From the NCBI GenBank assembly GCA_047967505.1, contig CM106538.1: a stretch of DNA of 64,000 nt. The stretch is one strand, 5' to 3'. Below, piece after piece: positions 29,073 to 63,357 of this stretch. The first letter of the stretch is position 1. Every line of letters begins with the position of its first letter. The notes under the pieces are model-generated. The model worked only from the letters and a program-made list of their open reading frames with translations, had not been told where the DNA came from and did no database searches. The translations under genes and the position numbers were made by a program. This DNA is from Dipteris shenzhenensis. Taxonomy: Eukaryota.

Positions 29073-32000
29073 ATGGAATTAAATAGATTGTCCAAAGGAA
29101 AAGGCGTAGCGGATGATGGAGCTAGTGGTGGTGATGCTGGCAGAAATTTAGAAGATGAAGAGGTCTATGTCGAGCTTGCTGCCGGGGTACCGAGCCGAAG
29201 GTGACAAAGAGGTGAGGAAGATGTTGCCGAATCTGCTCTTTTGCAAGTTTTAAGAAAGCGAAACTCTCTGAATTTGATGGTGAGAAGAAGACCGGGGAAG
29301 ATTTGGAAGCGTGGCTCGAAGAACTTGAAGATTTCTTTGCTCTACGAGAGTTTGATGAAGCGGGAAAGACTAAGATCGCGGTACTACAGTTACGTGGAGT
29401 TGCAAAACTATGGTGGAAGTCGCATGTGCAAATCCGACAACATCAAGATCAACCCATCACATGGGCTGAATTCAAAACTGCAGCTGAAAAGTGGTATTGT
29501 TCTCCACATTATTATATGGAAAAGAAGATGGAGTTCTATAATTTTAAGCAAGTACAAGAGGGAAAACATAATCTTTCTATGGATGAGTATAAAGAGAAGT
29601 TCCTGCGATTACATAAGTACGCACCTGAGGTCACAGGTGAAGCTCTTACTCACAAATTTGTGGAAGGGCTTAAGGAAGATCTTTTATATATGATGAAAGG
29701 AATAGGATCAAGTGATTTCTTGGATGCTATGGCTAAGGCTGAAAACTTTGAAAAGATGGAAGAATATAACCTAAGAAAGATAGAAAAATCAAAGTTCATT
29801 CCAACAGGTCATCGTTTTTAAGGGTCACAAGGTTCAGGTATGCCTCAACGAAAACCTGATTATTCGAATATGCCTAGATTTCAAGAGAGGAGTAGCCAAC
29901 CTGGGTACAACCAAGTGGGAAGGCCAAACTTCAATAACCGAAATTAGAATCAGAATCAAAATCAAAATCAAAGAAATAAAGGAGTTTTAAATCAGAAAAC
30001 CCGAGAAAACGCACCTTGGAAAAGTGATCGAGAGTTTATTGAATGGGCAAGAAGATTGGGATTATGTTTTAGATGTGGTGAGCAAGGTCATCAAACATTT
30101 GAGTGCGTGAATAAAGAAAAATTTAATTTTATGAAAGGACCAATGATGGGAGCAAAGACAAATCAGACGAATCCAACCATCGACGAAGCGGGGGACAAAG
30201 GTAAGTGCTTGGAACCTATGAAATGTATGGCATCTTCCACAACTCATATGCATGCGTCTGTGATTAAAACAAAACATAAGTTTTCTTATTGACTCCAGTA
30301 GCACTCATTGTTTTATATCCACGAAATTCCTCAAGACTCTAAACCTAGAAATTAGGGATCAAGTCAGAAGACTAGTCCAACTTGCTAATGGAAAATTAAA
30401 TTATACTCAAGGGCTTCTAGAAAATCTTTTAGTTTAGCACAGAGGAAGAGTAAGGGAGATTTTTATGTTATTGAGATGGGGAAGTGTGACGCTATTATTG
30501 GAATGGATTGGTTAAATGTAAACAAAGCAGTTATTGATTGTGGAGAGAGGACCGTTAGTTTTCTTAATGAAGATGGTAAAGATAAAATTATTCAAGGAGA
30601 AGAAAGAGATAGTAAACCTTCTCTCATATCAGCCATGAAATTGCTGTGAGGAGTAAGGCAGGGCTGTGACACATTCCTCGTCTTTGCTGATAAGTTAAAG
30701 GAGGGAAGTGAAGATGAGACAATACCACACTATGTTACAAAACTCCTTGAAGAATTTTCCGATGTGTTTCCTGATGATTTACCTAGGATGCCACCGCCTA
30801 GACATCTTCACCATGCTATAGAGTTAAAACCAGGCACAAGTCCTTATTGTCGGGCTCCCTATAGATTTAATGTGGATGAACTAAAGGAGTTAAATCTTCA
30901 ACTGAATGACTTGTTAAAGAAAGGGTTTATAAAACCTAGCGTTTCTCCTTGGGGTGCTCCAGCCTTATTTCAAAAGAAAAAGGATGGAACTTATAGGCTT
31001 TGCATTGACTATAGAGGATTGAATCGGCATACTATAAAGAATAAGTACCCTCTACCTCACATTGATGAATTGTTGACTCAATTGAATGGTGCCACAGTGT
31101 TCTCTAAAATTGATTTGCGATCTGGTTACCATCAGATTCGTATTAAGGAGGAGGACATTCCTAAAACTGCTTTTAGAACTCGCTATGGCCATTATGAATT
31201 TACTGTGCTTGCTTTTGGCTTGACCAATGCACCCGCTACCTTCATGTGTCTAATGAATGATGTATTCCGTGAGTATTTAGATGAATTCATTCTAGTTTTT
31301 TTGGACGACATTTTTGTATATTCCAAGAATGGGGAACAACATGAACAACATTTAAGGAAAACACTTGAAAAGTTACGGGAGCATAAACTTTATGGGAAAA
31401 AGAGCAAATGTTTCTTCGCTAAAGACAAGCTTGTGTATTTGGGTCGTGTGATTTCAAAAGATGGTATTCATATTGATCCTGACAAAGCAAGCTTATTTCA
31501 GAGTGGCCTAGACCGAAAAATATAAGGGAGGTAAAAGGCTTTATTGGCTTAGCACAATATGAGAGAAAACATATCAAAGATTTCTAAAAAATAGCCTCTC
31601 CACTTACTGATTTGACAAAACTTGACAAGCAGTTTATATGGACGGAGAAATGTCAACAAGCTTTTGATACTATGAAAGACAAAGTGGCTGAAAATTGTGT
31701 TCTCAAGATACCCCAGATGGGTAAACCTTTTGTAGTGACATGTGATGCTAGTGGTACCCAACTTGGATGTGTACTTTCTCAAGATGGTCGTGTAGTGGAA
31801 TATGAGTCTCGAAAATTAAGGAAGCATGAAGAGAACTATCCCACGCATGATCTCGAATTGGCTGCTGTTGTTCATGCATTGAAACATTGGAGACACTTTC
31901 TACTTGGTGTAAAGTTCGAACTTCGAACGGATCATGAAAGTTTGAAGTACCTCTTCACTCAACCATTATTGAATAATAGGCAAAGAGGATGGATGAATCT

Positions 32001-33544
32001 TCTTTCCGAGTATGACTTTGAGATTAAGTACATTGAGGGAAAGGAGAATAGGGTGGCTGATGCTTTAAGTAGAAGACCTTTCGTGAATGCCATCACCCTT
32101 ATTCGTTCCGATCTTGGAGAAAACATTAGAAATGAACTTGAACATGATGTTTCTTATGCACCTATTCTTCAAAAGATTGCTCAAACACCTTGTGAAAAGA
32201 TTGAAGGAAAGTCTCATTTGGTGAATGGTAATTTATATTGCCATGATAGACTTTGTGTACCATGTGATTCACCTTTGAGATGGAAAATCTTGTATGATTG
32301 TCACGATGCTCCATTTTCGGGACATGTTGGATATAACAAAACATACAGCAAGGTTCGAAAATCATTTTATTGGCCTACACTAAAGCATGGTGTTCATCGT
32401 TATGTCCAAGAATGCTTACAATGTCAACAAGTGAAGGTGGAACAACATAAGATGCCTGGTAAGATGCAACCTTTGGATATACCTTTCAGGAAGTGGGAAT
32501 CAATATCCATGGATTTTATTACTAAACTACCTACAGCTCGAGGGGGATATGATACCATTTTTGTCATCGTTGATCGTCTTACTAAAATGGCACATTTCTT
32601 TCCTATGAAAAAGACTGATGGTGCTCTTGAGGTAGCTAAGTTGTTTGTGAAAGAAATTTTCCGATTGCATGGGATGCCTAATAGTATTGTGTCAGATAGG
32701 GATTCCAAATTTACTTCTAATTTTTTGGAAGGTCACATTCAAAGCAATTGGGACGGAGCTTAAGATGAGTACAGCTTTTCACCCACAAACAGATGGAGAA
32801 ACTAAAAGGGTTAATCGCGTACTTGAGGATATGCTTCGAATGTATGTTAATGAGAAGCAAACAAATTGGACTGAATTCCTATCCTTAGCTGAGTTTGCTT
32901 ATAATAGTTCATGGCATAGCTCCATTCAAATGACTCCATTTGAAGCCATGTATGGTCAGAATTTCCACACTCTTGTGAATTTTGCAGATCCTCAAAATAG
33001 AGTCGAAGTGTCTAGACAAATGCTTGAGAGGATGGATGAGGAAGTGAAACTGATTCGGGAGAGCATTCAAAGAGCACAAGACATGCAAAAGCATTACTAT
33101 GATAAGAAGCGGTCTTTCCATGAATTTCAGATTGGGGAGATGGTATCTCTGAAAGTAATACCTAAACGCAGTAATCTAATCCTTGGGAAGGATAGAAGAC
33201 TCTCACCTCATTTCGTAGGACCTTTTCAAATCTTAAAGAGGGTGGGAACGCTTGCATATCAACTTGAACTGCATGAGAACATAAAAGTGCATCCTGTTTT
33301 CCATGTCTGTTTATTGAAATCTTATGTTGCCAACCCAACTCATATTTTTCAGGACAAGTCTAGGATCATGGAGGATGGGACTTTGAAAGTCGAACCTGAA
33401 TATATATTAGATAGGAACACGAAGCGGCTTAGGAATAGAACAATAGAAGAAGTTTTGGTTAAGTGGGATGCTTATCCTGTAGAAGATGCTTCCTGGGTAG
33501 ACTTAGATGCCTTACTTAATGAGTTTCCTTCATTTAAACTCTGA
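29073..33544 (+). pseudogene. Gypsy gag-pol (gag, CCHC knuckle, protease, RT, RNase H, integrase, chromodomain), disrupted by stops and frameshifts
   Basis: gag 29303-29821; CFRCGEQGHQTFEC knuckle; protease remnant near 30285; RT with [11 protein letters not shown] and FLDD (30764-31525); RH/INT with HHCC and SISMDFITKLP (31612-32763); GPF motif and chromodomain EVLVKWDAYPVEDASW (to 33544). Confidence 0.95.
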
Positions 33545-33546
33545 GG

Positions 33547-33573
33547 AACACACTATTCAAAATTTTTGGACTT
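33547..33573 (+). repeat. Left TIR AACACACTATTCAAAATTTTTGGACTT
   Basis: Exact reverse complement of 48209-48235. Confidence 0.95.
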
Positions 33574-33898: not shown

Positions 33899-34158
33899 GG
33901 TGTATAGATACACCATTTAAAAAAAAAAAAAGAGTTTGTTGAATTCAATACATAAGTGGTGTATAGATACACCCTTTTTTAAAAAACAAACCATACAATA
34001 AATTATCTTATTGGTGGTGTATAGATACACCATTTGTATGGAAAAAAGCATACAAAACATTATCTTATGCATCTGAATCTCGTTATTGGTGGTGTATAGA
34101 TACACCATTTGTATGGAAAAAAGCATACAAAACATTATCTTATGCATCTGAATCTCGT
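33899..34158. repeat. Left subterminal repeats carrying the palindrome GGTGTATAGATACACC (4 copies)
   Basis: Copies at 33899, 33958, 34016 and 34091. Includes a ~75-bp tandem duplication overlapping the transposase stop. Confidence 0.85.
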
Positions 34159-37100
34159 TCAGAGTCATCAGACTCATGTAATGTATTTGAGCTTGATGGG
34201 TCAAGTCTTGCCAAATGATGTTTAATATGGACACGACTTGGATCAGGGATTGTGATACATTTTTCAACATTGTATCCATGCTTCTTTTTAAAACTTCGTG
34301 TCCTCGATTTCCAACAATGAATAATGCTACTGACTTCCACCTCTGTTAATCCCTCATTATTTGGAACCCATTCACGTTTCTTTTGCAAGCATCCCTCATA
34401 GAGTTGTTTTATTGTATATCTTCTCGGGAGATTTTTTAATGGCTTTGGTTCATACCATAAAGCTGTAAATGTTATAGGAGTTCCCTTGTCATCCCTTTCT
34501 ATCTTAGTAACCTTTGCAACCCAAATTGGGCCACCTTGGTCATCCAACTCTGAACCCGGATCACATGCCCAAACTGCAACAAATAGACCCTCTTCAATCT
34601 CATTACATGGTATAAACTCTGGTAAGGGTTTGTCTCCCTTCCTGCCACAATATTTTCGAGGTAAAAGGCATTCCTCTGCTTCCTCCATATCTACTAACAT
34701 ATTTATATCCAAAGGAAAACTTGGTGACCTAGCTTGTTCCGGCCAAAAGGATTCAGAGTATTCAATGCTCATTAAGTTTTCTTGTCTTTCTAAAGATTGG
34801 ATAAGTGCTTTAGTTGATTTAATTGTCTCCAAATTCTTAGTTGATTGCTCAGGATATTTCTGCATCATACTTTGAAGATGTTTAATGAAGGCTTTCAAGC
34901 CTTTCATTTCATCTATGTCAAGTGATTTGTTTTTTGCAAGAACAAATCTAGTTTCCTCCAATGGAATTATTCGTTGTAACAAAGCATATGACTCACTCCA
35001 TAAATGATCTCCATCTACTGAGTAGTGCTTCCATTGCATCACTGGAATATTGTTATGCATGTGAAACTGAAAGTAGTGTGGATTTGTGTGTCCTATTAGG
35101 GCATCATCTCCTGTTTGTAAATGTGGCTCTATAAATGCTCTCCAATCTACCATCCTCTCTAAGATAGCCACTTCTGATTCTTCCTTACGAGAACCTCCAA
35201 TTTTTTTCCCAATTCGAAATAGCATATCCTCCATTGTCAAAACATCCATTGCCTTCAACTCACCAGAGATAACACTGAAGATTTGATCTATGTCTTCATG
35301 TGTATGGCCGACAAGAAGAAAGCCAACTTCCACTTCTTCAAATATTTTCAGACCAACCAACATAGAGCATAAAGCAAATATATATTTATTCTTGTTCTCT
35401 CTCCAATAATTATCAGCTTGTATTCGCAATGTGTTAGGCAAACATCCGCGAGCATCTCTGACCTTTCTTATTGCTTTCATGATTGATGTAACAACCTGGT
35501 TACTATCATGGTCATGCAAACTATCAATCCATACATCACAAAATATTCGGTATCCATGTACTAATACTCCACACAAGTGTGTTTTTAGTCCACGTTTGCC
35601 CTCCAATGCCGGTGGGATACGTCTATATCGTGGCAAAGTGGTTGTATTCTGGTCCATGCCATCAATGGTGATGCACATGGACTTATTGACATGTGAAATA
35701 GCTTCCTCTCTCCAAGAAGCATACAACTTTCGAGCATCCTGCACATGACGTAAATGGATTGATCGCCATTTAATATATCTTCCTCGCTGCTGCTCACATT
35801 TACTATGTTCAATGGCATTTTTTAATTCATCACATGTCTTACATTTTGACATCCTTTGCTTTGATGGTGTCTTGACATGGCAAAAATCTCTACGCCAAAT
35901 TTTGTACAAGGTTGATCGTGAAATCATGCTCTCGTCTCTGTCTTGTAAAGTTTTATTGACAGTCTCTAGGACGACCTTCTTTGGCATTGGCATTCGACAC
36001 GTCCATCTAGCATTGTTTGTTGAAGATGAGGCTGTGGTAATGCATGGTCTTCGAGAACTTGCTTTAATGTTGCGGTTGCATTTATAGTGCTTCCATGGCA
36101 TTTAAGCTTGTACGTATTTCCATGAATTGTATGAATAACTTTTTCTTTCACCTCTGCCCAGATGGTCCAATATGTGCCATGTGATAGTCCAGTTAACCAT
36201 TGATATCCTCGATTGCAAATGGGTCTCCCATTAACCATGGGTTTCAATCTAGGTTTACAGTGTCCTGTGCTCAAATCTTGATTAGTGCCTTGATGAAGAA
36301 AGCATGAAAACTCTTGAAGAAGATAGTTATGTCTATTAGGCGCTGTCTTACTCCAAATACCAAGGCGTATGGCTGCACAATCATCTTTCCCAACTTTTCT
36401 AATGCAAAGTCTCTTGCAACAAACTCGCATAAGCATCCTTTCCATATTCTCCTCGGATAGCATCACATGTCTCTTTGGTTCTGGAATTGATGCCATGATT
36501 CTTCGCCTCTTCACACTCACATACTTTCTTTTTGTAAATAGTGTCTTGCGTTTTCTAGTTGTAAGACCATCAAACCTCGAATCCATTTCCCTTGAATCTT
36601 CATCTTTATAATCAAATGCTGTGTAGGCTTGAGAATTATTTGATACCTTATAATATCTTGGAAATGGCAATCTGGTCGACATGTTCATTGATGTCAATTT
36701 GTTGCTAATGCCTCTTGAATTTTGTGGTTGAACTGTTTCTCCTTCGTAACTCAAGATTCTCCCATCTATATTCTCTGGCATGCTAGCAACAATATTCTCA
36801 GATTCTCTGCCCCTTTTGCCTTGTATTGGAGTGGTAACATCATGATCATTGTCACTAATATCATCAATTCCTGTTATTGCATCACTTATCCCATTGATCT
36901 TTGCGTGTATTTTTCTTTGTGGTCCCATCTTATTATTTTCAACACATCTTCTGTCTTTTATATCAATAAGCATGTTTGAGTCACTTGCAGCACAAGACAA
37001 GTCTTCTATACCAGTGAGCCTGTTTGAGTCACTTGCAACACAGGATAAATCTTCTATACCAGTGAGCCTGTTCGAGTCACTTGCAACACATGACAAGTCT

Positions 37101-40100
37101 TCTATACCAGTGAGCCTGTTCGAGTCACTTGCAACACAAGACAAGTCTTCTATACCAGTGAGTATATTTGAGTCACTTGCAACACAAGAAACCTTTTCTG
37201 CATCAACATCTGTTACTATAATGTCCTCGATACCTGTGAGCATGCCACTATGATACTCTTGATTACTACTATAGCTTCTTATCAATTTGGATCCCATTTG
37301 TGTTATAGTCTTTTTCTTCTGATAATATTCTGTTGTGTCTTCCATGACATTGAAGGAAACTGTCTTGGGCAAACTTGATTTCAAGAAAGCTAACCCCCAT
37401 TTACAAGTACTATGAACTTGTAGTTGAGACGTAGTATTATGGACGTCTAATTGTGAAGTACTATCCATTGCATTTTGAATGACACCTGCACTAGTCAACT
37501 TAATTATCTCCACTATACAGAGAAAACTCTGAGCATAGCCCTTAAAGTTGCCAATTGCTAAAACTTCTCCGAAGCGAGATAACATCTGTACTTTTTCCCC
37601 CTGGATATAAGTTTTCTTGATATCTTGAAAGTATGTCTTTGGAACAATTTCGTCTTGGTCCCAGAGTGTTCTGTGTGCTTGCATATCAAATATATCACAT
37701 TGTAAGATATCTCCCAATGTTTCAAAGTCTCCATGTGGATATTTTAAATGTACTTCAGGATTTACAACGTTGGTGATTATCACTACACATCTTCTCTCAC
37801 CACAACGTTGAAAATGACACACATTCATAGGATCAAGACTATGAATTCGTCCAAAAGCCACCACTTCATTCTTCTCATATAACACCACATCCATACCCTC
37901 TGTTAGGGTGAATACCTGTTTTATGTATAAAAGTAAATTAGCAACTCAAAATGAACATTTAATAAATAACCATTGAGCTTATTATTACTTAATAACTTCT
38001 ATATCAAAACTAGCAGAGAAGGCATTAACCTAAACCCTACATCCTAAACTTTAAATAATTAATACCAAAACATCTTAACCACCGTAAATCCTAAACTTTA
38101 AACATTTAATTCTTAAACCCTAAATCCTAAACCCTAAAAATATAATCATAAACACTAAACCCTAAACACTAAATCTTAAATCCTAAGCCCTAAATCCTTA
38201 ACCCTAAATACTAAACCCTAAACCCTAACCTAAAATACAATCAAAATTTTATGATTTTTCTCGATTTGTACAACATGTTAGATATACCCCCAACTCAAGC
38301 AACACGTTGGGGGGTATATCCGACCTGTTGCACAAATCTAGAATTTTCTCGATTTGTGCAACAGGTCGGATATACCCCCCAACCTGTTGCTCAAGCAACA
38401 GGTTGGGGGATATACCTGCAACCTGTTGCTTAAGCAACAGGTTGGGGGGTATATCCAACCTGTAGCACAAATCGAGAATTTTCTCGATTTGTGCAATAGG
38501 TTGGATATACCCCCAACCTTGTTGCTCAAGGTTGGGGGGTATATCCTACCTGTTGCACAAATCGAGAATTTTTTCGATTTGTGCAACAGGTTGGATGTAC
38601 CCCCCAACCTGTTGCTCAAGCAACAGGTTGGGGGATATACCCACAACCTGTTGCTTAAGCAACAGGTTGGGGGGTATATCCAACCTGTTGCACAAATCGA
38701 GAATTTTCTCGATTTGTGCAAGAGGTTGGATATACCCCCAACCTTGTTGCTCAAGGTTGGGGGGTATATCCTACCTGTTGCACAAATCGAGAATTTTCTC
38801 GATTTGTGCAACAGATTGGATATACCCCCCAACCTGTTGCTTGAGCAACAGGTTGGGGTATATCCAACTTGTTGCATGAATCAAGTTGGATATACTCCAA
38901 CATGTTGCACAAATCGAGAATTTTCTTGATTTGTGCAACAGGTTGGATATACCCCCAACCTGTTGCACAAATCAAGAAAATTCTCGATTTGTGCAACATG
39001 TTGGAGTTACTCCCCAACCTGTTGCTTGAGCAACAGGTTGGGGGGTATATCCGACCTGTTGCACAAATCAAGAATTTTCTGGATTTGTGCAACATGTTGG
39101 ATATACCCCCCAACCTGTTGCTTGAGCAACAGGTTGCGGGTATATCCCCCAACCTGTTGCTTGAGCAACAGGTTGGGGGGTATATCCGACCTGTTGCATA
39201 AATCGAGAAAATTTTCGATTTGTGCAGCAGGTCGGATATACCCCCAACCTGTTGCTTAAGCAACAGGTTGGGGGTATATCTAACATGTTGCACAAATCGA
39301 GAAAAATCATAAAATTTTGATTGTATTTTAGGGTTAGGGTTTAGGGTTTAGTATTTAGGGTTAAGGATTTAGGGCTTAGGATTTAAGATTTAGTGTTTAT
39401 GATTATATTTTTAGGGTTTAGGGTTTAGGATTTAGGGTTAAAAATATAGGGTTTAGGGTTTAGATTTTAGGGTTTATGATTATTGTTTTAGGGTTTAGGA
39501 TTTAGGTTTTAAGGTTTAGTATATAAGATCATGAGCTTAGAGTGTAGAATCTAGGGTTTAGAATTGAGAATTAGGTTTTAGAATTTAAGTTATAGGGATT
39601 AGGATTTAAGGTTTAGGAATTATAACTATTATATAAGTTTAAGAGCTTAGATTATATAACCTAAGATTTAGGAAACTTTAGGATTTAAGATTTAGGGTGT
39701 AAGATTTAAGATATATAGACTATATAAAATATGCATTCTAAAGTATTTAGTTTAGATATATATAGACTATATGTTATATGCTTTCCAAAGTGTTTTGTTT
39801 ATAGGTATGATACATTGCAAAGGCTTTACTTTAAGTAAGTATAAGTCTACCTAGTCAAAGTAGGATCAAAGTATCCTACTGATTAGGGACAAGCACATAG
39901 GCTAAAAGCACACCGATTCATATTTTTTTACATTCATGCTGCATGGTGTATCAAAAGGTACGATCCTTTGCAAAGGCTTTACTTTAAGTAGTTACAAGCC
40001 TACCTACTCAAAGTATCCTACTGATTAGGAACAAGTACATAGGCTAAAAGCACACCGATTCGAAGAAGTGATGTATGCACACTGATTAGGAAGAAGTGCA

Positions 40101-41693
40101 TGGTGTATGAGAAGAAATGAAAAAGTATTTGATAAGAAATATTCGAAGAAATATATATTCCATATCATGGACATTCTAAGAAATATGTATTCCATATCAT
40201 GGATACCATGGATATCTGGTGCTTGCTAAAGTAAAAAAAAATGATATGGATGCAATGATAATGTAGTCTTCTAGATTCTATGGTTTTAAATACCTACCTT
40301 ACAAATACATTATCTAATTTTGCATTCTTTCGACTAACCAACAAGTATTATACACATGGAATCATGGATATCTGATGGTTACTAAAGTAAAAAAATGATA
40401 TGGATGCAATGATAGTGTAGTCTTCTAGATTCTATGGTTTTAAATAACTACCTTACAAATACATTATCTAATTTTTCATTTTTTGACTAACTAACAAGTA
40501 TTATACATATGGAATAAAAGCATACATGCTAAAAGTAAGTGTGTAAATTTTAATATTTTCTAAATTTTAAAATTAATTTAATTCTTTTATTGACTACTTT
40601 TTAAAATTGAAAGGTTATTAGTATATAATCTACATAATTTTAAATGTTATTAATGTATAATATTAATTATTTATATATTTATTTAAATTTATATAATAAT
40701 TAATTTATATTTATATTAGTTTTTAAGTTAATAATGTATAGAAGAGCAATATATTCACTAATTCTTCATTGTTTTAAGACTAAGTATTATATAAAGCACA
40801 TATGCTAGAAGATCTCCTTTCAATTTTTTTCTTAAATTAATGTATTTATATATTTATTTATATAATAATTATATAATATTTATATTAATTTATAGATTAA
40901 TAATATATATTTTTAGTAAAATTATATTTTAACATTAGTTAATAAAAATTTAATTAATTATATTATGGGGTAAAAATATTATAAATGGATTTCTTATATT
41001 AATAAAGTGTAGTGAGAAGAGTTTTTTGAAAAGATTTATGATTGAATTTTGTTTTGAAGTTGTTGCGTACGCAATAGGTAGGACATTTGAGTGGTTTTGA
41101 GATTGATAGAGATATTTGTAATAACGTGTAGTGAGAAGAGTTTTTTGGAGGATTTGTGGTAAAATTTTGTTTTGAAGTTGTTGCGTACGCAATAGGTAGG
41201 GAGGTTTGAGTGCTTTTGAGGTTGAGAGAGAAATGTGTTATAGATTTTTTTTTTTTTAAAAGGAGTTTTTTGGAGAGATTTATGATTGAATTTTGTTTTG
41301 GAGTTGTTGCGTACGCAATAGGTAGGGAGGTTTGAGTGGCTTTGAGGTTGAGAGAGAAATTTGTAATAGATTTTTTTTTTTGGTTGATGAGTTTTTTTGA
41401 GAGATTTATGATTAAATTTTGTTTTGAAGTTGTTGCGTACGCAATAGGTAGGGTTTGAGTGTTAAATTTTGTTTTGAAGTTATTGCGTATGCAATAGGTA
41501 GGGAGGGGTTGTGAGAGTTTGAGTTAAAGAGGAAAATTTATGGAAAAAAAGATTTAATGCTAAAATGGTTTTTTAAGTTGTTGCGTACACACAAGTTTTT
41601 TAGAAAAAAATCGGATTTGAAAAAAAATTCAAATTTATAAAAACTTGATTCTTAGAAGTTCTTGCGTACGCAACAACTCACCTCTTGCATCAT
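34140..41693 (-). CDS. DDE/DDD transposase gene (Sola-like/DUF7869-like core). Predicted exon 1 41693-41682 (MMQE), exon 2 from 37915; one frameshift near 35990
   Basis: Core motifs: CKTC, ITIDGMDQ, LRIQADNYWRENKN, FLLVGHTHEDIDQIFS. The N-terminal ORF (37894-35966) has Tnp1/EnSpm-like VAFGRIHSLDP domains and a CCKRLC...PICNR Cys region. Splice signals: AG|GTGAGT donor at 41681, CTAAT branch and CAG acceptor at 37916; the splice is in frame. Confidence 0.85.
36975..37190 (-). repeat. Coding 48-bp (16-aa) tandem repeat LTGIEDLSCVASDSNR, ~4.5 copies
   Basis: gagtcacttgca recurs every 48 bp and stays in frame in ORF 35966-37894. Confidence 0.92.
38027..38233 (+). repeat. Degenerate plant telomere-type repeats (CCCTAAA)n
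   Basis: Runs of taaaccc/taaatcc/taaacac. Confidence 0.85.
38113..39440. repeat. ~1.3-kb fold-back (inverted-repeat arms) filled with nested palindromic units
   Basis: Arm ~38113-38290 is the reverse complement of ~39270-39440. The interior is built from ACCTGTTGCTYRAGCAACAGGT and TGTTGCACAAATCGAGAATTTTCTCGATTTGTGCAACA units joined by GGGGGTATATCC/GGATATACCCCC. Confidence 0.92.
39327..39710 (+). repeat. Degenerate plant telomere-type repeats (TTTAGGG)n
   Basis: Runs of tttaggg/tttagga that decay with distance from the fold-back. Confidence 0.85.
39800..40510. repeat. Two local tandem duplications (~120-150 bp each)
   Basis: ~39805-39920 repeats at ~39957-40060; ~40207-40360 repeats at ~40362-40514. 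Confidence 0.75.
41010..41680. repeat. AT-rich ~120-bp tandem array, each unit with TGTTGCGTACGCAATA
   Basis: Motif at 41061, 41179, 41305 and 41431, with variants at 41481, 41579 and 41660. Confidence 0.9.
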
Positions 41694-41789
41694 TTTGAAA
41701 ATTTTTGCGAATCCTGCAACAGGTTGATGAGAGAAGAGAAGCGTGGAGTGTAAACGAATGATCTTTGAATGAAAGAGAGAATGAAGAAT

Positions 41790-41885
41790 GTTCTACTTAT
41801 AGTGAACCTAAAAGAACTAAAAAAACCTTAAAAACTAAAAAAAGCGGACTTGACCTAAAAGCTATCCATTTCCTATAAAACTCTA
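41790..41885. promoter_or_regulatory. Candidate bidirectional promoter of the DNA transposon
   Basis: Plus-strand TATAAAA at 41874-41880 and minus-strand TATAAG at ~41796-41801. Each is followed by a pyrimidine-rich leader and a splice donor (41964 plus; 41681 minus). Confidence 0.65.
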
Positions 41886-41963
41886 CTTCTCCTCATTCTG
41901 TCTCACAACTCTCTTATTCTCTTTCACAACTCTCTCCTGGAGCTCCACCACCTCTCCACTCAG

Positions 41964-43832
41964 GTACTCCCTCCCTCCCTCTTCTCCAACTTCCTCTCTC
42001 CCCTCCCCTTCCCGTCCCTTCCCCTCTCCTCCCGCTTCTCCCCTCCCTTCCCTTCCCCCTTCTCCTCTCCTCCCTCCCCAAGGCCCCTTCCCTTCCCATT
42101 GCCTGCTCCCTCCTCCTTCCGTCCCCTTCCTTCCCTTCCCCCTGTCGTCGCTACCCCGCTCCCACCCCCCTCCGCCCCCCTTCCCTCTTCTCCGCCCTTC
42201 CCACTCCCCTCCCTCCCTCCGTCCCGCCCTCCGCCGCACCCCCCTCCTGCCCTGTCGTTGACCCTTTGCCCCCCCTTCCCTTCGCCCTCCCCTCCGTCCC
42301 TCCCTCCCTGCCGCCCTCCCCCCCTCCGCCTCCCCCTTTCCTCCCCTCCGCCCCCAAGCCCCCCCTTCCCTTCGCCCTCACCCCCGTCCCTCCCTCCCTG
42401 CCGCCCACCCACCCTCCCCCCCTCCGCCTCCCCCTTTCCTCCCTCCGCCCCCAACCCCCCGCCCCCTCCCGCCCTCCCCACGCCCCCCCCCGCCGGCGCG
42501 CCCGCCCCCTTCCGTCGTCGGAAGGGGACGGGCGCACCGGGGGGGGGGCGTGGGGAGGGCGGGAGGGGAGGGGAGGGGGGCGGGCGTGCCGGGAGGGGGG
42601 GTTGGGGGCGTGGCGAGGGCGGGGCGGGCGCGCCGGGAGGGGGGCTGGGGGCTGAGGGAGGGGGGGGTGTGGGGAAGGGGAGGGGGGGCAAGGGCGCCCC
42701 CCCCCCACCTGTTGCGCACGCAACAGGTGGGGGGGGGGCGCCCTTGCCCCCCCTCCCCTTCCCCTCGCGCCCGCCCCCCCTCCCCTCCCGCCCTCCCCAC
42801 GCCCCCCACCGCGCACGGGGGGGGGCGTGGGGAGGGGGGGAGGGTCGGGCGTGGGGGGGGCGGGAGGGGAGGGGGGGCGTGGGTGGGGCGGGGGGCGTCG
42901 CGAGGGCGGAGGGGGGGCGGGCGCGCCGGGAGGGGGGGCTGCGGGGGGTGGGGAAGGGGAGGGGGGCGAGGGCGCCCCCCAACCTGTTGCGTGCGCAACA
43001 GGTGGGGGGGTCAATCCCCCCCACCTGTTGCGCACGCAACAGGTGGGGGGGCGGCCCCCCCCACCTGTTGCGTGCGCAACAGGTGGGGGCTTCCCCCTCC
43101 CCTCCCGCCCTCCCCACGCCCCCCACCGCGCGCCCGCCCCCCTTCCGGACGGAAGGGGGCCCGCCCCCCCCTTCCGAACGGAAGGGGGGGCGTGGCGTGG
43201 GGGGCGCGGGAGGGGAGGGGGGGCGTGGGTGGGGCGCGGGGGGGCGTGGCGAGGGCGGAGGGGGGGCGGGCACGCCGGGAGAGGGGGCTGTGGGAGGCGG
43301 GGTGTGGGGAAGGGGAGGGGGGCGAGGCGCCCCCCAACCTGTTGCAACAGGTGGGGAGCTTCACCCCACCCGCCCCCCTTCCCTCCCATCCGCCCATCCC
43401 TCCCGCCTTCCCCTTCCCTCCCCCAACCCCTCCTTCCCGCCCCCCGCGCGCCTGTCCCTCTCCCCTCCGCCCCCACGTGCCCTCCCCTCCGCCCCGTTCC
43501 CTCCCCTCCAACCCTCGCACACCCCCGTCCTCCCCACGCCCCCGCGCGCGCGTTGAGAGGGGGGTTGGGGGCGGAGGGAAGGGGGGGTGGGGGAGCGCGA
43601 GAAAGGGAGGGGGGCATCGATGCCCCCACCTGTTGCGCACGCAACAGGTACCCCTCGCCCCCCTCCGCTTCCCTCCGCCCGCCCGACCCCCGCTCCTTCC
43701 TTCCCTTGCCCCTCCCCTTCCCTCACCACATGCACACACACGTGTGGAGAGGGAAGGGGAGGGGCAAGGGAAGGGGTGTGGGGAAGGAGCAAGGGGGAGG
43801 AGGGCGGGCGGAGGGAAGAGGTGGGCGTGGGT
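41964..43832. repeat. Extremely GC-rich low-complexity tract with G/C runs and embedded palindromes (predicted 5'-UTR intron)
   Basis: Alternating C-rich and G-rich blocks. ACCTGTTGCGYRCGCAACAGGT cores at 42710, 42985, 43026, 43066 and 43631. CCCTTCCG..CGGAAGGG hairpins near 42516, 43150 and 43178. Confidence 0.9.
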
Positions 43833-44012
43833 GATTAAAATAAACTAACTAATTAAAATAAAATAATTTAAAAAAATATTTTATTTTAAAAATTAAAAAT
43901 AAATAAAACTTAAAAAATATTTAATTAAAAATTTATTTAATATTTTGAGTTTGAAAATCATTGTATTTCTCATTTTTTATTTTTGATTGTTTTTCAGAAA
44001 ACTATAGCTTTC

Positions 44013-47000
44013 ATGGCTTCCAGTTTTGGTTCCAAGGTGTCTTTCAAATACCTTGAACATGCTTGGTATTTTATGGAGCGGAAATCAAAGTATTTTTTGG
44101 TGATCACTTCAGAGAACATATCAAGCCCGAAATATTCTGCAGAGGCAGTAAGAAATGGTGGCATGGTATCAAACATCAATATTAAAGAAAACAATTTAAT
44201 AGAAATTGTGTGCCAAGGAAAGAATGACGAGGTGGTTTACAAGTTACGAGTTACTCCGAAGCACTTCTTGAAACCGTTACCAGATTCAATTGAGGGATCC
44301 CAAGAATTACTTAATGCCTTAGAAGCATTGAAGAAAATGTGGGATGCATTTCCAAGTGGTGGTGTTGAACCTTCAGGGGCATTAATTATGCCATCTATTC
44401 AAGTACCGTCAATATCTGTGGCGGTAACTCCGATAACTCCAACAAGTGTAACTACAGTATCTCCAACTGTACCTATGCCATCGACTGCTGCAACTACAGG
44501 AACAAGAAGGAGTGATCGTGGAGTAGACTCAAGTGCTATAGCTATTCCTAGAAAGAGAGCAAAAATAACTCCTACTCCACGTGGAGATCGCTCAAGTGCA
44601 GGCTATTTAAAACCTGGCGAAAAATTGGATAGCGATGAAGAGAAAGATCAGCAAGAAGAAGATACAAGTCTCGAAGACTTTTCTATAAGTGTGGCGGACT
44701 TACATCCTCCAGAGGATGAGGGATACATTTGGGGATTTTCACAATTCAGCGTGGCCACAATGCTTATTGATCGAGCTTCATTGTTCACAAATCAAAGAAA
44801 GCTCGATAAGATATTTGCACGCAAATTGTATGAAGATACAAGGAAAACAAGAACTCCCGTTGCCACTAATATCACTCTTCGTCCTATGGCGTTTAAGAGA
44901 CTTCAAGAAGATGATCCCACATTGCCTGATGTCACATTTCAAAAGCGCGTGGACTTTCTTGATGCTTTTGAGAACTTTAGAAAGAGTGACTTTGTTCGTG
45001 GAGAGGCTTTGTATCAAAGCCGATATGGGAGTGACATCGAGAAGAGATACATGCTGGCAAAGAATAGATTCTTAGAAAGATGTAGGTTTGAGCCCATTGA
45101 TGGGCAACACTTTTGTGAGGCTTGCAGGATCGCCCTTGATGAGGGAAGAAAAGGAAACTTGCCACAGATTGAGTGGATGGAAAAGTTTCAACGGGTCATT
45201 TGTCATATATGCATATTTAATGATGACTCGAAGTACATTCTAGAATCAGAGAGGCTGAACTCTGCTCCATTTAGGTTGAAAAAAAGCTCTTCTCTTTCTG
45301 AGATCTTGATAAAGGCAAGGGAGTTATGGATGGGCTGTGGAAAGCCACAAACAGTGAAGGGCAGGAGACCTACATCAGAGTACATGACAAAGAGGACTCG
45401 GTTCTATAGATGCTTGAAAGGTGTTGTAAGCAATACGCAAGGCATACCAGGTAACAAGGTTGAGGCAAAGGATTTGAACACCGCTGTTGCAAGATATAGG
45501 GATGTTACCTGCATTGTCTTCCGTGAGGAATCAGTGTTTCAGAGCATCGTGGATGTTTGCCAAGCATATGAAACAGGAAAGATATCCTTTGAGGCACCAG
45601 AGCACATTGCAACTCAGAGGAAAGAAATAAAGAAACCGATGTCTATTGTTTGGTGGAGAGCTTTAAGGTTTGTTCCAGATGCAATAACAGAAGAAGTATG
45701 CAAGAAGATCCTAAGTGGTGACTGCTTCTTTGGAAAGAAGAGCAAGCATAGCAACTTAGATGAAGTGGTCACCCGAATGATTCAAAGTGAGGCTGCTCTC
45801 TCGGCACTATTATTTTTATTGAAATCTGATGATGAGTTAGCTGGCAAGTCAATTGATGTGGATAAGAAGAAAGCACTTAGCCTAGGTCAACTCCTTGATA
45901 AAACATGGGCTAGAAAGTGGTTGGCTTCAATGGATGCAGATGCCACACCAACAAAGGATCTAAGAGCTAAAATGCCAAAGGTTGTTGAGACAGAATATAT
46001 GGACATTAAGAAAAAGGCCTTGCAGTCCAGTACGCAAGGTAGAGCAATTGGTGGTTTAGATGATGGTTCTTCATTCAGCTTCTCTTATGATATCCTGCTA
46101 TCAGAGAATGATACAAAATTTGCACACATCAATGGCATTGATACGGAGCATTTCATAACAATGAGCGGTCATGCTTGGGAGAAGCCATGCGTATTTTTCA
46201 TAAATGAATTGCAAGACCTTGCAGTGTCACAGATAGTTGAACTTGTGCGGTTTATTGTTGAAGGTCCTATGGCAGATAAGAAAAGATCAACGTTGGTCCT
46301 GTTCGTGACAGAATCACAAAGGGATGCCCTATATGCGAGTTTGACATCTTCATTTGGGTATTTACTTTCAAAAGTATACCATGGTATAGTCCTGCGTAAT
46401 CATATGACTGTCTTGGAAGGCACTGCCATTCAAGTCTTGCAGCCTTTCTTGATGTGCTTCTTATCGAGGGGTGGTGGTAATCTAATCCAAACTCCTTTAA
46501 GGACTCTCGAGCTTCATTACTTTGAGGACCATAAGGTTAAGCTTGATGCAGCAATGGTGGATTACAGAAAGCCGATGGATCCTGATGTGATACTAGAGAT
46601 GACAAAGAATTTATTGAATGATGGGTGGGAAGTAGCATTGTATCGAATGGGTTTTGCTGCTGAGAAATTGCTACGGCAAGGTAAAAATGTAAATGTTATT
46701 GATACCCCCCATCAAATTGAGTTCTTTGACACATATTACAGTTGCACTACTTTCTTTGAGGAGGAAAATGTCAAAGAAGAGGGTAGTGAGTCTGAGGGTG
46801 ATGATTCTAGCTCAGGTGATGATGAGGATGAAAGCTCTGCATCCGATGACTTACGGCAAGAAGAAATCCGCACAAAGAATAAGGGTGATCAATTGTCAAC
46901 TAGAGTCAAGGAGGTTCCACTCATCATACGGGAAGGTTCACGGCAACAAGAAGTTACAGTAGTACAGCACGTCACAGGTAAAGGTAAGGCTAAAGAGGTG

Positions 47001-48208: not shown

Positions 48209-48235
48209 AAGTCCAAAAATTTTGAATAGTGTGTT
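48209..48235 (-). repeat. Right TIR
   Basis: Reverse complement of 33547-33573. A 19-bp internal inverted copy lies at 48155-48173. Confidence 0.95.
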
Positions 48236-48264: not shown

Positions 48265-49408
48265 TGTGACGCTCCAATTTTGTATATGAAATATTTTGGA
48301 ATATATATCACATATAGTGTTCAAAAAGGATGGTTTTGATGTTTTGAAGGTTTTGGGAAAGTTTGGTGTTGGTCGAAAAATTTTGGTTTTTGTCCATTTT
48401 GGTGTCGGCTGGATTTTGCGGCTTGATTTGAGTTGGTTAGAGAAATAATTTGAAGAAACTCTGTATGAGAGAGTTTTAGATCTTGTTGAGTAGAAAAACT
48501 TTGTCCTAGTGAAAAATTTGTGGTTCACTCGTTTGCATGCCTGTATGGAGGTTAGAAGTTGCTTACAAAGTGGTTTTGAGCTAAAAGTGCATCTAGATTT
48601 CCGTGTCAAGAGTTGCAGGCATTAGACGGAGGTCGAGATGGAAGAGTTAGCCATGAAAGGTCAAATGCAAAGGGAAGGAAGAGGGTCCAATCTTCGAGAT
48701 GAGCTATTGAGCTTGTCCATTGGATCTACGAGGTAGGAGTGGTGATGCTCCGAACAGGGCCGTTTTCATGCCTTTAAAAAAAAAGAAAAAAAAAAGAAAA
48801 AAAGAGACACGTCGAGATTCCGTACGCATTTGCTATCCTAAGTGCACGCTAAAAGAAGATGAAAAGCACATGCACGCTTTTCGAGAAAAGCTGTTTTTGG
48901 CCGATTTTGGAGGCTTTTGGCTGCTTATTTTGGAGTCGTGAAAGGCTATAAAAGAAGAGGAGATCGTGAGAAGGAGAACACACAATCCAACGCACGCATA
49001 TCGAGGCTGAGCGAAAGAGAAGAGAAGGCATGCATCTCGAGGTTGCTTGAGCGAAGAGAAGGCACGCATATCGAGGCACTGTGAAAGTGACAATAGCGTA
49101 GGCGAATCGAGGCAGCGCAAAGAAGAAGATAAGATCAAGATATTTTGAGAGTGAGAGTGAGAGTGTGATTGAGATTTGATGATTGGATCATCTGATTTGA
49201 ACATCTTCATGCGAGTGAGAGTGAGAGTGAGAGTGAGATAGCTCGGGGGTGGACGGGTGGTATCGAGCTCCTTCACAGAGTGATTCTTCTCCAAAATTAT
49301 TCTAAAGACTCATCAGTTTGATTCATACTACAATCTCTCTTCTTGTTCATTCGTGATTATTATCTTGCTACAATTTTGATCGTGATTGTGAAAGAACGGT
49401 GCGTGACA
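48265..49408 (+). repeat. 3' LTR (1144 bp)
   Basis: Direct repeat of 27835-28983, followed by TSD GGAAG. Confidence 0.97.
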
Positions 49409-57357: not shown

Positions 57358-59815
57358 TCGAGAACTAACACTAATATCATCAAAAGATAATCTAAGATTT
57401 TTTCTAAGTACCTTCAAATATTTAACTGAGTCATCCAAAAGGTGTTGAAAAGTTTCTATGCAAAGTGCATGGCTTTGAAAGTAGAAATGAAAGAGCTGGA
57501 GAAGAGGCATGAGAGAGGCATGGTGTCCAATTGCAAAAACTGGTAGGGTGAAAGAGGAGAGAGGAATTATATGATGTGCAAAAGGTTACAAGGCGTTTGC
57601 CACCTAATCACCTCATGAAGACTTAATTGTTCATCACACATATTGACAAATGAACCTCGTGGGTTGGTACATTGAGTCCCTATTTTCCTGTCCAAGGAAT
57701 AATGACTATAATTATCAAATCCCTATCTTCCTAGTCATCAAATCCCTATCGCCCTTTCTATGCATATGATTATCTCTCTCACACAATGCACAATTTATTT
57801 AACACTAGTTTGGTAGAAGGACATAAAAATGTCCTAGGATACTTTTATGTCCTCTTAACTTAGCCACTTCCTAGAATTATTCAAAAGCATCCATAAGCTA
57901 TTTTGAGGTTTTTATTATTTGCCATAATAGCTTATATGCTGAAAAAAACTTGAAATTATGATGGATTAGAACTTGCACCTATTACTTTGAGTTCTACCGA
58001 GTCAACCTAACACCAAAATCTCAAGCTGTTTCTCAGGTTTTAGATAAAATGACCATACTTCTTCATTAGAATGAGTTTTTTTAGATTTTGTAAGTTCTAG
58101 AGTCTAAGGATAACTATAACACATATGCTTAGATTGCTTTGGAGCTAGATAATTATATTTATTATGATTTATGGCCTCAACGATCATTTTAGAGAATCCT
58201 GACAGCGAGGCAAAATTTGATCTTTTGCAAACTCTTTGACATGTATAACAAGTTATACCATACTTTGCATATGTCTTGAATGGGATATTATGGAGGATCC
58301 AATAGGCCTAAAACTAAAGTTGTAGAGGACTTATCTAGAAAAATAATTGGATGTTTTTAAAAAAGAAATTTAATGTGTACTTTTTCTAATTCATTAGTAA
58401 TGCTAGGTTGATCTAAGCTTAGTTTCAAAATTGATGGAGTATAAATGTGTCATACCCTCTTTTTGATATATCCCTTTTATGAAATGTGTGGAACTTTCTT
58501 GACAGAGTGCATATATCCTTTAGAGCGATGTATAATTCAAAATATGTTCACATGAGCATGACTTTGGATGACCTTTTTGCACAATGGATTGATAACATGA
58601 ATAGATATGTACAAGGAAATTTTCCAAATGCAAAGGGAGAATTGTTACTCAAGAAGATGACAAGCACAAAGCTTCTCACCTATGGAGAAGTGGGAGAAAT
58701 TTCCCAAGCGAAGGGAATAAGGTTGGGACCGATAATTTTTTGGTGTATATTAGGGAATATGGAATATTTCATGATCTTCTATTTGAAAAATGAGAGGGAA
58801 GCACACTGTGGATCATGCTCTACAATCAATGTGTTTAATTCTTGGATATATTAGCACTTTCATGTGGGCATGTTCAGTCAATTGCATGACATAAGAATAT
58901 GCGTAAGATGAGAAGAATTGTTAAGGAGTTTCATAAAAAAATTTCCATAAAACTAAGGGCCATAGGAATGCTACTCACATTACGTAAATAAATTATATAG
59001 ATTGGACAAGCGAGGCATTGAATGCATGCTTCAAACCTTACTTGCAATTTAAGCAAATGATAAAGAATTCACTACTACTAACACCTTTCTTATTGATGAT
59101 AGTCTATTTAAGGGGGTGTGTAGCCTTTAAAAAATTGTATTATATCCATTTTGTTTTATGGTAGATGAGACTAGTGATAATGATCTTCTCCCTTATGTGC
59201 TTTTATTGCTCGAAAAGTGTAGACATAAGGAACATTAACAAGATTGATGATTATGAAAATGAGCCAATACATGTCACTCATCATTTGTATAGGTATTTCA
59301 AAGATGTAATTTTGGAACGGGAGAACTTTACTACTAAGTACCTTGGACCAATTGGCTCAAAATGAGTATTTAGTTCATGTAGTTCCACAATGAACAATCA
59401 ACAAAATCTCGAGACTCTCATGTTGCGTTTGTATGTCGTCAAGGTCGTCACTCGTCAGGAATACAGTTGCAATCAACCTTTCTTGACAGACGAAAAAGTA
59501 CCAAGGTCGACCTGCAGGCTCCCTGCAGGCCTCCCTAGGTACTTTCCCTTGAGATTTTGAAATCAAGCAGATATTGCCATTGAATGACCGGAGTGCTCCT
59601 GTGAAGTGTCACCAAATCACTACTTTTTCTGATCGCGCAATAGTTTTTGACGTAACGGGAAGAGAATCGGATTCGTCACGCCTGCCCCCGTAACCCCCTT
59701 TCGCATCTTTGATTACTGCCACTTTTCTGTATAAATAGGAACTTAGGAAGCCAGTCTTTCAAACTTGTAGCAACCTACACAGCTCCCCATCTTGTTCTTC
59801 GTCACAGCATTCAAC

Positions 59816-60352
59816 ATGTCGCACCACCACCACCACCCCGAAGAAGTGTACTATGATGAATCCTACGAAAGGACTTCCTATGAGGAAGCTCCGCCCCCTC
59901 GCTGCCATGAAGGATCTTACGACCGCTACGCCAGCCGTCCTTACGGAGAGACCTACGAGCGTGTAACAGAGGAGGAAGCCGATTACTCTCGCCGCCAGGA
60001 GAAGGGCGCGCCCTATCAGCGCAACGAGCGCCTCGGTGAGCTGGGTGCCGTTGCAGCAGGAGCATTCGCTTTGGTAAGACGATTCCAGACGTCCCTGTGG
60101 GTCGTCGTGGACGTTAGTATTTTTCCACCCTGGTTTTTAGGGGGTGATTGCGGGAAAGTCGATGAGTAATAGACGATTCTAAAACGATGTGTCGTGGTTG
60201 ATTGTGTGCAGTATGAAGGCCACAAAGCAAAGACAGATGTGGCGGATGCTGGGAAGCACAAGACAGAGGCAGAGCTGGCTGGAGTAGCAGCTCTGGGATC
60301 TGGAGGTTATGCACTGTATGAGCATCGCGAGAAGAAGAAAGCTGGCTGGTAA
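59816..60352 (+). CDS. ASR: ABA/WDS-induced (ASR-like) protein, copy 2; exons 59816-60073 and 60212-60352; 132 aa
   Basis: Same structure as copy 1. TATAAATA at ~59730, phase-0 GT-AG intron, intact frame. Confidence 0.93.
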
Positions 60353-60820
60353 AAGAAGCTGGCAGTATGCAAAGCGAGGATGCACGAGCACCACTTTTAG
60401 CTGTCCCCATGTACTTCATCCAACTAATATAATATAATAAACCTCGCTTTTGTGACATACTAAGATTTTCCCAATTCCTTTTCGAGTAACTTTTTGGCAT
60501 GCCAAAGTAGAGTTTATGGTTTTCAATCGTATGATGACTCTCGTGAGATTGAAATTGCACTATGTTGTGTTTTTAGAGGATGAGTTTGGGAATGTTCGTG
60601 GATTCATCTTGGTATATGCCAAAGTAGCGTTTGTTTTGGTCTCTCTTATTATGGGACTTGTGTGATAGAAGGGTAATGTGAGAGGGGCTTTAGGTGTTAT
60701 CATAATCTAAGGGTGAGAGGGGCTTTAAGGGTTACCATAATCTCATTTGGCAGGCCTAGTGAAATTTTTACGTTATTAAACTTAACATAAGTGTTGAAGT
60801 TATTTAAAGACAAAGCCATA

Positions 60821-63102: not shown

Positions 63103-63357
63103 CTATTTTGTCATCTTTGGATCATACTTTCCCTTGAGTTTATCAATTGAATGAATTCTATACCAATGTACTTCCACAAAAGTAATAACATTGCCCTCAT
63201 AAATAAGCTTTGTGACTTTTACCAACCAAAATGGATGATTTTTTCCATCATCATTAGCAAGAACTGCTGTCATTGTGCCCTCATTTAGCTCATTAACATT
63301 ACCCTCCCATATTTCCTTCTCTTGTAGACAAAGTTTGACTATTGCACTACAATCCAT
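63103..63357 (-). pseudogene. Relic C-terminal domain related to the Sola-like transposase C-terminus
   Basis: LNEGTMTAVLA..HPFWLVKVTKLI..ITFVEVHWY aligns by eye with IEEGLFVAVWA..GPIWVAKVTKIE..ITFTALWY in ORF 34140-36101. Confidence 0.55.

Follow-up and report, generated by a model that had tools for sequence, protein, structure and literature searches.

The analysed window, a 64,000-nucleotide stretch of contig CM106538.1 from Dipteris shenzhenensis (assembly GCA_047967505.1), contains a 14.7-kb terminal-inverted-repeat DNA transposon whose second gene, here called ORF2 (open reading frame 2), includes the stretch under study, positions 46119-46730. An original prediction, made from the letters alone, had read this stretch as a catalytically dead beta-class N4/N6 DNA methyltransferase (MTase) fold. 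Our analysis favours, with a probability of about 0.6, the view that it is the conserved, non-catalytic, Rossmann-like C-terminal domain of ORF2, and that ORF2 is a ParB-like, probably self-DNA-binding, accessory protein of the transposon. The whole gene is a better-supported finding than its tail, namely an intact ParB-like accessory protein with its own arrays of parS-like palindromes, comparable to the recently described PAG3 type.

The peptides quoted in the original prediction (AHINGIDTEHFI, PCVFFINELQ, IVELVRFIV, RSTLVLFVT, FGYLLS, GIVLR, LQPFLMCFLSRG and YRKPMDPDV...NVNVID) were all recovered in frame +1 of the stretch. From its N-terminal domain the protein runs through a low-complexity linker, the ParB-like region and a helical part to the C-terminal alpha/beta domain, which contains the stretch, and it ends in an acidic tail (Table 1). 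A HMMER scan of 1.84 billion representatives detected 47 relatives of ORF2 at E <= 1e-3, mostly short fragments, and the long ones, P0022 (1488 amino acids, aa), P0031 (1097 aa) and P0049 (1339 aa), were colinear with ORF2 across all regions. At least ten independent fragments, 32-91% identical, spanned the stretch, and hhalign joined its second half to the matching colinear domain in three distant relatives of full length (E 1.9e-4 over 121 columns). Because independent fragments span it and both clades are joined in this way, the stretch is, on sequence evidence, a genuine conserved protein domain and not a chance frame.

No Pfam family was found for ORF2 at E <= 10. In nine relatives searched at E <= 1, neither an MTase nor a ParB family was reported and no match rose above threshold, those obtained being unrelated (E 0.057-0.23) and far under their gathering scores. 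NCBIfam gave no family for ORF2, P0049, P0031 or the transposase of the element, and on P0022 only two unrelated phosphonate diphosphatase models, far below cut-offs (E 0.009 and 0.055). PADLOC gave no match for ORF2 and five relatives. Sequence searches of the PDB returned nothing for the whole of ORF2 at E <= 10, nothing for an alignment (A1) of the family, and a single chance match (E 1.1) for P0022. A homologue search from the ORF2 protein alone returned none, and those started from alignments yielded just P0022 and P0049 in one case and P0002 and P0007 in the other; since so few homologues were added, the domain alignment was shallow (19 sequences). MAFFT alignments of full-length relatives with fragments (A3, A4) were misaligned and were excluded.

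Residues 228-570 of ORF2 aligned well over 27 sequences, with TN[QH]R, [TV]LRP, EP[VI]DGQH..AC and YDD..Y..S.R.N conserved, and the AlphaFold model of this region reached a predicted local distance difference test score (pLDDT) of 84.7 and a predicted template modelling score (pTM) of 0.77. When the region was compared with the PDB by Foldseek, proteins of the ParB family (Noc, ParB, KorB and pNOB8 ParB) occupied ranks 1-6, 9, 10, 13, 14 and 40, the first six with probabilities of 0.41-0.85, E-values of 0.10-0.28 and a best target-normalised template modelling score (TMt) of 0.48. The model suggests that the central region of ORF2 probably has a ParB-like fold.

Upstream of ORF2, between this gene and that of the transposase, a 16-bp palindrome, TGTTGC-N4-GCAACA, was found in 19 copies (at most one mismatch), all located at 38385-43646. 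The expectation was 0.12 copies, and none of 100 shuffles reached 19. Spacings of 39-41, ~95, ~186 and 118-126 bp recurred among the copies. The palindrome is equal in length to the parS consensus, TGTTNCACGTGAAACA (PMC7022226), and has the outer TGTT...AACA bases in common with it. Because a ParB-like protein thus adjoins 19 palindromes of parS length with shared outer bases, we infer that ORF2 binds the repeats of its own element. It would do so as a dimer, and its binding may mark or organise the element's own DNA, whether for synapsis, for anti-silencing or for control of transposase or ORF2 expression. In that case a surface for dimerisation, or for contact with a ligand or DNA, would come from the C-terminal domain, without methyl transfer.

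In the C-terminal alignment of 19 sequences no column was invariant. An FF[ID][DN]ELQDL-like motif was present in ten sequences and [FI]DCRR in the three distant ones. Conservation was seen at a D/N that follows the first core strand, an R ahead of the second, a W ahead of the late strand and, where the last strand lies, G..h.h[IL][DE]; the clades share just 11-15% identity, yet these few polar positions are kept. AlphaFold2, run on this alignment, gave a mean pLDDT of 66.6 and a pTM of 0.66. The predicted elements begin with a hairpin and a short helix, followed by b-a-b-a, several strands and, last, a-b-a-b-a, also given as b-a-b-a-b-a-b-b ... a-b-a-b-a. This order is compatible with the beta-class layout, but also with generic Rossmann-like folds. 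As modelled, the domain appears Rossmann-like and may or may not have an MTase fold.

The loss of DPPY/SPPY and FxGxG announced in the original prediction was confirmed. The pattern [DNS]PP[YFWH] occurred nowhere in the 49 family proteins, and hence no relative retaining DPPY/SPPY was found among them; the motif-IV column reads N-E-L-Q, D-E-L-Q or D-C-R-R, with D/N at its first position in 12 of 13 sequences. Neither D[PL]F.G nor [FLIV].G[ST]G (motif I) was present in the C-terminal domain, and no motif X with the family spacing was seen. A terminal acidic residue at the last strand is conserved across the family. All catalytic motifs were thus absent from all relatives found, which agrees with the "catalytically dead" half of the claim, whereas none of the defining tests that could be run placed the domain among the MTases. 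The lack of catalytic motifs in every homologue is one half of what the original prediction had named as its refutation.

These tests relied on two MTase profiles, one of E. coli YhdJ with 80 homologues and one of 14 diverse phage beta-class MTases. Searched with hmmsearch --max, the YhdJ-family hidden Markov model had no match at the claimed place in the 49 family proteins. By hhalign, the domain alignment scored E 0.41 against the YhdJ profile and E 0.31 against the diverse MTase profile, and the close clade alone scored E 0.29 against the MTase profile. The three distant relatives alone reached E 0.016 (probability 2.8%), in a match that laid GEVFIVLRYPEG on motif I, in a register other than that of the original prediction. 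As controls, the phage MTase set matched the YhdJ family at E 2.9e-53, and single phage MTases, detected at ~24% identity, matched it at E 4e-15 and 2.5e-18. Semi-global hhalign of the domain against MTases gave no colinear alignment. The best local match, which set GFAAEKLLR..NVNVIDTPH on the MTase N-terminal GDALxxL..VDLIFADPPY, was rejected (E 0.41).

The proposed register was also scored with an ungapped position-specific scoring matrix (PSSM) of MTase motifs X-I-II. The claimed window ranked 96 of 1088 in ORF2, where shuffles reached its score in 200 of 200 trials, and, among the distant relatives, 36 of 1052 in P0031, 4 of 1443 in P0022 and 2 of 1294 in P0049, and in none of the four proteins did its score exceed the shuffled-sequence maxima. 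To the eye, KP...D...G[RK]...I[DE] is spaced as in YhdJ over a length of 46 residues; this was dropped as evidence, the PSSM being at chance in ORF2. Of the idea that the stretch tracks the beta-class motif order (IV-VIII, then X-I-II), what survives is that the predicted secondary-structure order can be laid on it; the sequence statistics were no better than chance.

The best Foldseek E-values obtained with the C-terminal model (0.046-0.1) belonged to tubulin/TubZ/CetZ, OmpA-like and macrodomain structures, over 93-165 columns and with a query-normalised template modelling score (TMq) of ~0.2. At rank 4 stood the Type III Mod subunit 7dsu_A in the PDB (278 columns, TMq 0.35) and a phage "DNA methylase N-4/N-6" in BFVD (TM 0.34/0.36), these being the longest alignments among the top matches, with E 0.06-0.18 and TM < 0.5. 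Neither of these N6_N4 MTase matches was significant. The ESM Atlas returned 30 matches for residues 905-1125 of P0022, the best being unnamed clusters (0.94), and all three of the family rows listed were PF01555 (ranks 12, 16 and 28; scores 0.89-0.90; 136-155 shared features, below 170). N6_N4_Mtase (PF01555) is the sole named family that recurs across these weak leads from Foldseek PDB, BFVD and the ESM Atlas.

Several observations weigh against ORF2 being a ParB-like, self-binding protein with a Rossmann-like end. For the ParB-like region, Foldseek returned no match at E <= 0.001 and a profile of the region returned 0 matches at E <= 10 among PDB sequences. The arginine patch GERRxRA, with which ParB binds cytidine triphosphate (CTP) (PMC7022226), is missing, and the family has [EK]P[VI]DGQH[FIV]xxAC instead in the 27-sequence alignment. 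The C-terminal model is weak, with pLDDT <50 in stretches within model residues 105-168, and it found no match at E <= 0.001 in the PDB and BFVD. On MTase ancestry in particular, no sequence or profile test against N6_N4 MTases was positive, and residues 640-925 of ORF2 gave no usable match in the ESM Atlas. The ten best family-bearing Atlas matches of the P0022 domain fell in one family or clan, an outcome that the Atlas calibration also reports for a third of shuffled proteins and that is thus a lead only.

The identity of the C-terminal domain was weighed among four alternatives. A beta-class N4/N6 amino-MTase fold whose catalysis has been lost, with DPPY turned into NELQ and FxGxG eroded, and that was kept as a "reader" of DNA or S-adenosylmethionine (SAM) or as a relic, has in our estimate somewhat less than an even chance. 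The compatible order of secondary structure, the rank-4 matches in two Foldseek libraries, the PF01555 label of every Atlas family row listed for the P0022 domain, and the D/N and acidic positions at motif IV and the last strand all speak for it, as do the existence of ParB-PF01555 fusions in phages and the precedent of inactive transposon-borne MTase domains in DIRS1 (PMC4738411). However, a significant score was obtained nowhere, the hhalign E-values of 0.29-0.41 contrast with 1e-15 to 1e-53 for true MTases, the proposed register is at chance in ORF2 and the marginal hhalign match shifts motif I elsewhere. Moreover, beta3 and alphaC are absent past the last helix, where the acidic tail begins, and the model is poor exactly where beta6 and beta7 are expected. 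Much the same chance, again somewhat less than even, goes to a Rossmann- or flavodoxin-like module unrelated to MTases, for instance a lineage-specific dimerisation or nucleotide-binding end that replaces the C-terminal dimerisation domain of ParB. Generic three-layer alpha/beta domains hold the best Foldseek E-values, the profile tests against MTases were all negative, and palindromic targets would imply a dimer; the generic matches, however, cover only part of the domain at low TMq, and no other family recurs between methods as PF01555 does.

An active enzyme with non-canonical motifs, in which the D/N, R and W that are conserved, with the D/E at the terminus, would build the site of a nucleotide-dependent transferase, hydrolase or nuclease that works on the DNA of the element, is unlikely. 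The few polar positions kept between such distant clades would suit it, and fusions with nuclease or DNA-modifying domains are frequent among ParB/Srx-family proteins (PMC4619093, PMC4738411), but no catalytic family was matched and the alignment lacks an invariant column. [quoted passage not shown] A ParB-like part followed by an enzyme-like C-terminal domain, beside inverted-repeat arrays in a giant transposon, is indeed how PAG3 is described, and the best HHpred match of its authors was 2OPW_A, at E 0.016 (bioRxiv 10.1101/2025.02.11.637652). Yet no 2OG oxygenase is among the matches listed from the best 50 of each Foldseek library (PDB and BFVD) and no Pfam 2OG family matched ORF2. The HxD...H triad is not conserved across the alignment, W taking the place, in the distant clade, of the H of YHGIVL in clade 1. 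Both ends of the model show b-a-b units, and the likeness to PAG3 is one of description. A GmrD-type HNH domain in the tail of ORF2 was rejected, its motifs being absent.

Returning to the preferred reading of ORF2 as a ParB-like accessory protein, the origin of its Rossmann-like end can be proposed only tentatively. At somewhat less than even odds, its ancestor was the MTase half of a ParB-N6_N4 MTase fusion of the phage type, and it would otherwise be an unrelated Rossmann-like module. A fuller scenario, which we regard as doubtful, is that ORF2 is a plant descendant of such a phage fusion that lost both methyl transfer and the CTP patch and became, as a parS-like system of the transposon, a dimeric reader loaded on arrays of the element's own 16-bp palindromes, the dead MTase fold serving as a second clamp that senses DNA or SAM, so as to protect, position or regulate the element.

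The original prediction had also placed the domain on a transposon, and this proved correct, as it is flanked by 27-bp terminal inverted repeats and adjoins a gene for a DUF7869 DDE-type transposase. The coordinates of the element and of its surroundings are collected in Table 1.

Table 1. Features of the ORF2-bearing transposon and its host retrotransposon in the window (bp, base pairs; LTR, long terminal repeat; RT, reverse transcriptase).
Feature	Position	Strand	Description and basis
Host Ty3/gypsy chromovirus, direct repeats (LTRs)	27835-28539, 48265-48968		95-97% identical
Chromovirus gag, RT, RNase H, integrase and chromodomain ORFs	29216-33544		
Left terminal inverted repeat	33547-33573	+	27 bp, AACACACTATTCAAAATTTTTGGACTT; target-site duplication GAGG (4 bp), up to TGAGGA (6 bp)
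Transposase gene	34140-37945	-	Two overlapping ORFs (35966-37945, 34140-36101); Pfam DUF7869, E 6.9e-52
Degenerate telomere-like CCCTAAA/TTTAGGG arrays, inverted, bracketing block 1	38024-38239, 39321-39603		
Palindrome block 1	38253-39305		Mid-GC repeat array, 9 perfect copies; repeat and palindrome search
Palindrome block 2	41016-41675		AT-rich tandem repeats, 5 one-mismatch copies (TGTTGCGTACGCAATA)
Palindrome block 3	41960-43835		65-88% GC, 5 perfect copies (TGTTGCGYRCGCAACA)
ORF2, accessory gene	44013 (ATG)-47417	+	Uninterrupted, 1134 codons; single very long open frame
ParB/Noc/KorB-like region of ORF2	44694-45722	+	Residues 228-570; motifs TNQR, TLRP, EPIDGQH..AC; model and Foldseek
C-terminal alpha/beta domain of ORF2	46065-46802	+	Residues 685-930, contains 46119-46730; alignment, AlphaFold2 model, Foldseek, hhalign
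Stretch under study	46119-46730	+ (frame +1)	ORF2 residues 703-906
Right terminal inverted repeat	48209-48235	-	Perfect reverse complement of the left repeat

The 14.7-kb element was inserted directly after the chromodomain stop codon of the chromovirus. Its transposase carries the D..D..E-like motifs DGMD, QADN and GHTHEDID, and the N-terminal part of this protein has a weak TNP1/EnSpm match (Transposase_23, E 0.032). With its perfect 27-bp terminal repeats, its 4-6 bp duplication and a DUF7869 protein bearing such motifs, the element has the sequence features expected of a cut-and-paste DNA transposon. A CACTA-type 3-bp target-site duplication was rejected, the bases beside CACTA being inverted and not direct. 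The two transposase frames overlap (35966-36101), which points to a frameshift or a small intron; ORF2, by contrast, is intact. A PDB sequence search with the transposase gave no match, and DUF7869 was not found in the literature searched. Also in the N-terminal part of the transposase, four tandem repeats of 48 bp (36937-37199) code for LTGIEDLSCVASDSNR units. On the minus strand at 63124-63297, a weak tblastn match to the DUF7869 transposase, in its C-terminal part (35% identity, E 1.8e-4), may be the remnant of a related element.

The third palindrome block is a 1.9-kb segment with sharp AT-rich borders within a region of ~40% GC, and C-rich and G-rich arms (CCCTCCC/GGGAGGG) surround its palindromes. 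A TATA-like site and a GT donor-like site lie at ~41870-41963, and a ttttcag acceptor-like site lies at ~43998, just before the ATG of ORF2. From these flanking sites, the block may be an intron in the 5' untranslated region of ORF2; it looks prone to form G-quadruplexes or i-motifs. Around the first block, repeats of the plant telomere type sit deep inside the transposon. Elsewhere in the window, long inverted duplicates were observed at 25514-26865 and 58962-60402, ~34 kb apart and with pieces 83-98% identical; an ORF overlapped by one of the copies weakly matches an ABA/WDS-induced protein (E 3.4e-5), just under the Pfam cut-off, which, like the CCCTAAA repeats, hints at a land-plant genome.

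With an intact ParB-like gene and 19 parS-sized palindromes in one transposon, self-recognition becomes directly testable on a defined 16-bp site. The family, in which the ORF2 protein and its long relatives have no Pfam, NCBIfam or PADLOC match, defines a new conserved domain even if its tail is not an MTase. If the tail is a decayed PF01555 MTase, then PAG2-type MTases, PAG3-type ParB proteins and the ParB-MTase fusions of phages would share one history, and the domain would be a further case of a dead DNA-modification fold reused for binding. Descent from a phage fusion, if true, would make ORF2 and its palindromes a eukaryotic, transposon-private "centromere/operator" module and point to a route of PF01555-type domains into Archaeplastida. 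Bacterial-derived N4-methylcytosine (4mC) methyltransferases have reportedly been co-opted in bdelloid rotifers and in Marchantia.

Compared with ParB, Noc and KorB, ORF2 resembles known proteins in the top Foldseek matches of its residues 228-570 and in the length and outer bases of the element's palindrome. It differs from them in being eukaryotic, transposon-borne and 1134 aa long, in having DGQH[FIV]xxAC in place of GERRxRA, in matching only at E 0.10-0.28, and in that no ParA partner was seen. A QR pair and DGQH are hallmarks of the ParB-like domains of the DGQHR/DUF262 type, and in GmrSD a ParB-like domain is followed by a helical linker of 200-400 aa and then by an effector domain (PMC4619093). 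ORF2 has the QR pair (TN[QH]R) and DGQH, as in DGQHR/DndB and DUF262 (GmrS) proteins, together with a GmrSD-like layout of helical linker and C-terminal domain. Unlike these systems, it lacks the R of DGQHR, a Pfam (PF14072 or PF03235), NCBIfam or PADLOC match, and HNH motifs in its C-terminal domain; a clear FxxxN was not seen either.

With beta-class amino-MTases such as YhdJ and 7dsu_A, the C-terminal domain shares a compatible element order and the D/N after the first core strand, whereas it is without motifs IV, X and I, significant scores, and beta3/alphaC past the last helix. Two phage ParB-PF01555 fusions are "DNA methyltransferase" genes of ~416 aa (PV036450.1, L094, and PV036444.1, L095), with an N-terminal GHGR/GHQR motif before a canonical PF01555 domain. 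As in these fusions, ORF2 has a ParB-type domain first and an alpha/beta domain of ~220 aa at the C-terminus. DPPY, HPTxKP and DPFxGSG are all retained in the phage proteins, whose scores against MTase profiles are 1e-15 or better, whereas ORF2 has none of these motifs, a helical spacer of ~300 aa and an MTase score at chance. In the DIRS1 retrotransposon, an MTase domain has lost the residues for catalysis and for substrate binding, and its action is presumed to consist in binding alone (PMC4738411); unlike the tail of ORF2, it is a PCIF1-like (group 2) MTase, belongs to another transposon class and is recognisable by sequence.

The nearest counterparts are the giant Plavaka (EnSpm) transposons of the red alga Bostrychia, which carry three accessory genes. 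PAG2 combines PF01555 with SET, and in PAG3 the N-terminal part is ParB-like (HHpred 7BNR_B, E 0.29) and precedes the putative 2OG oxygenase; tandem inverted-repeat arrays adjoin PAG3, for which the authors proposed self-binding (bioRxiv 10.1101/2025.02.11.637652). Self-DNA-binding accessory genes of DNA transposons are rare, this preprint naming, besides the proposed PAG3, only the anti-silencing protein of eudicot VANDAL elements. In the available portions of the literature searched on ParB-like and DGQHR proteins, Plavaka and transposons, it is also the only source that describes a ParB-like transposon accessory gene. Plavaka-like transposases occur in red algae, chlorophytes, streptophyte algae and a moss (PMC13519894), and the CMCT clade (CACTA/EnSpm-Mirage-Chapaev-Transib) has CA..TG termini and target-site duplications of 2-5 bp (PMC12730594). 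The Dipteris transposase is placed only as Pfam DUF7869, and the Plavaka likeness is one of architecture; the element shows no PAG1- or PAG2-type gene, and the tail of ORF2 bears no sign of a 2OG oxygenase in Pfam or in the Foldseek PDB and BFVD matches listed. As far as descriptions can be compared, ORF2 is, like PAG3, an accessory protein without an InterPro/Pfam domain that has a ParB-like region, adjoins inverted repeats and lies inside a cut-and-paste element of >14 kb, and 7bnr_A, of the same PDB entry as the HHpred match of PAG3, stands at rank 9 in the Foldseek list of its ParB-like region. The Dipteris element fits, in architecture, the giant Plavaka/PAG3 kind.

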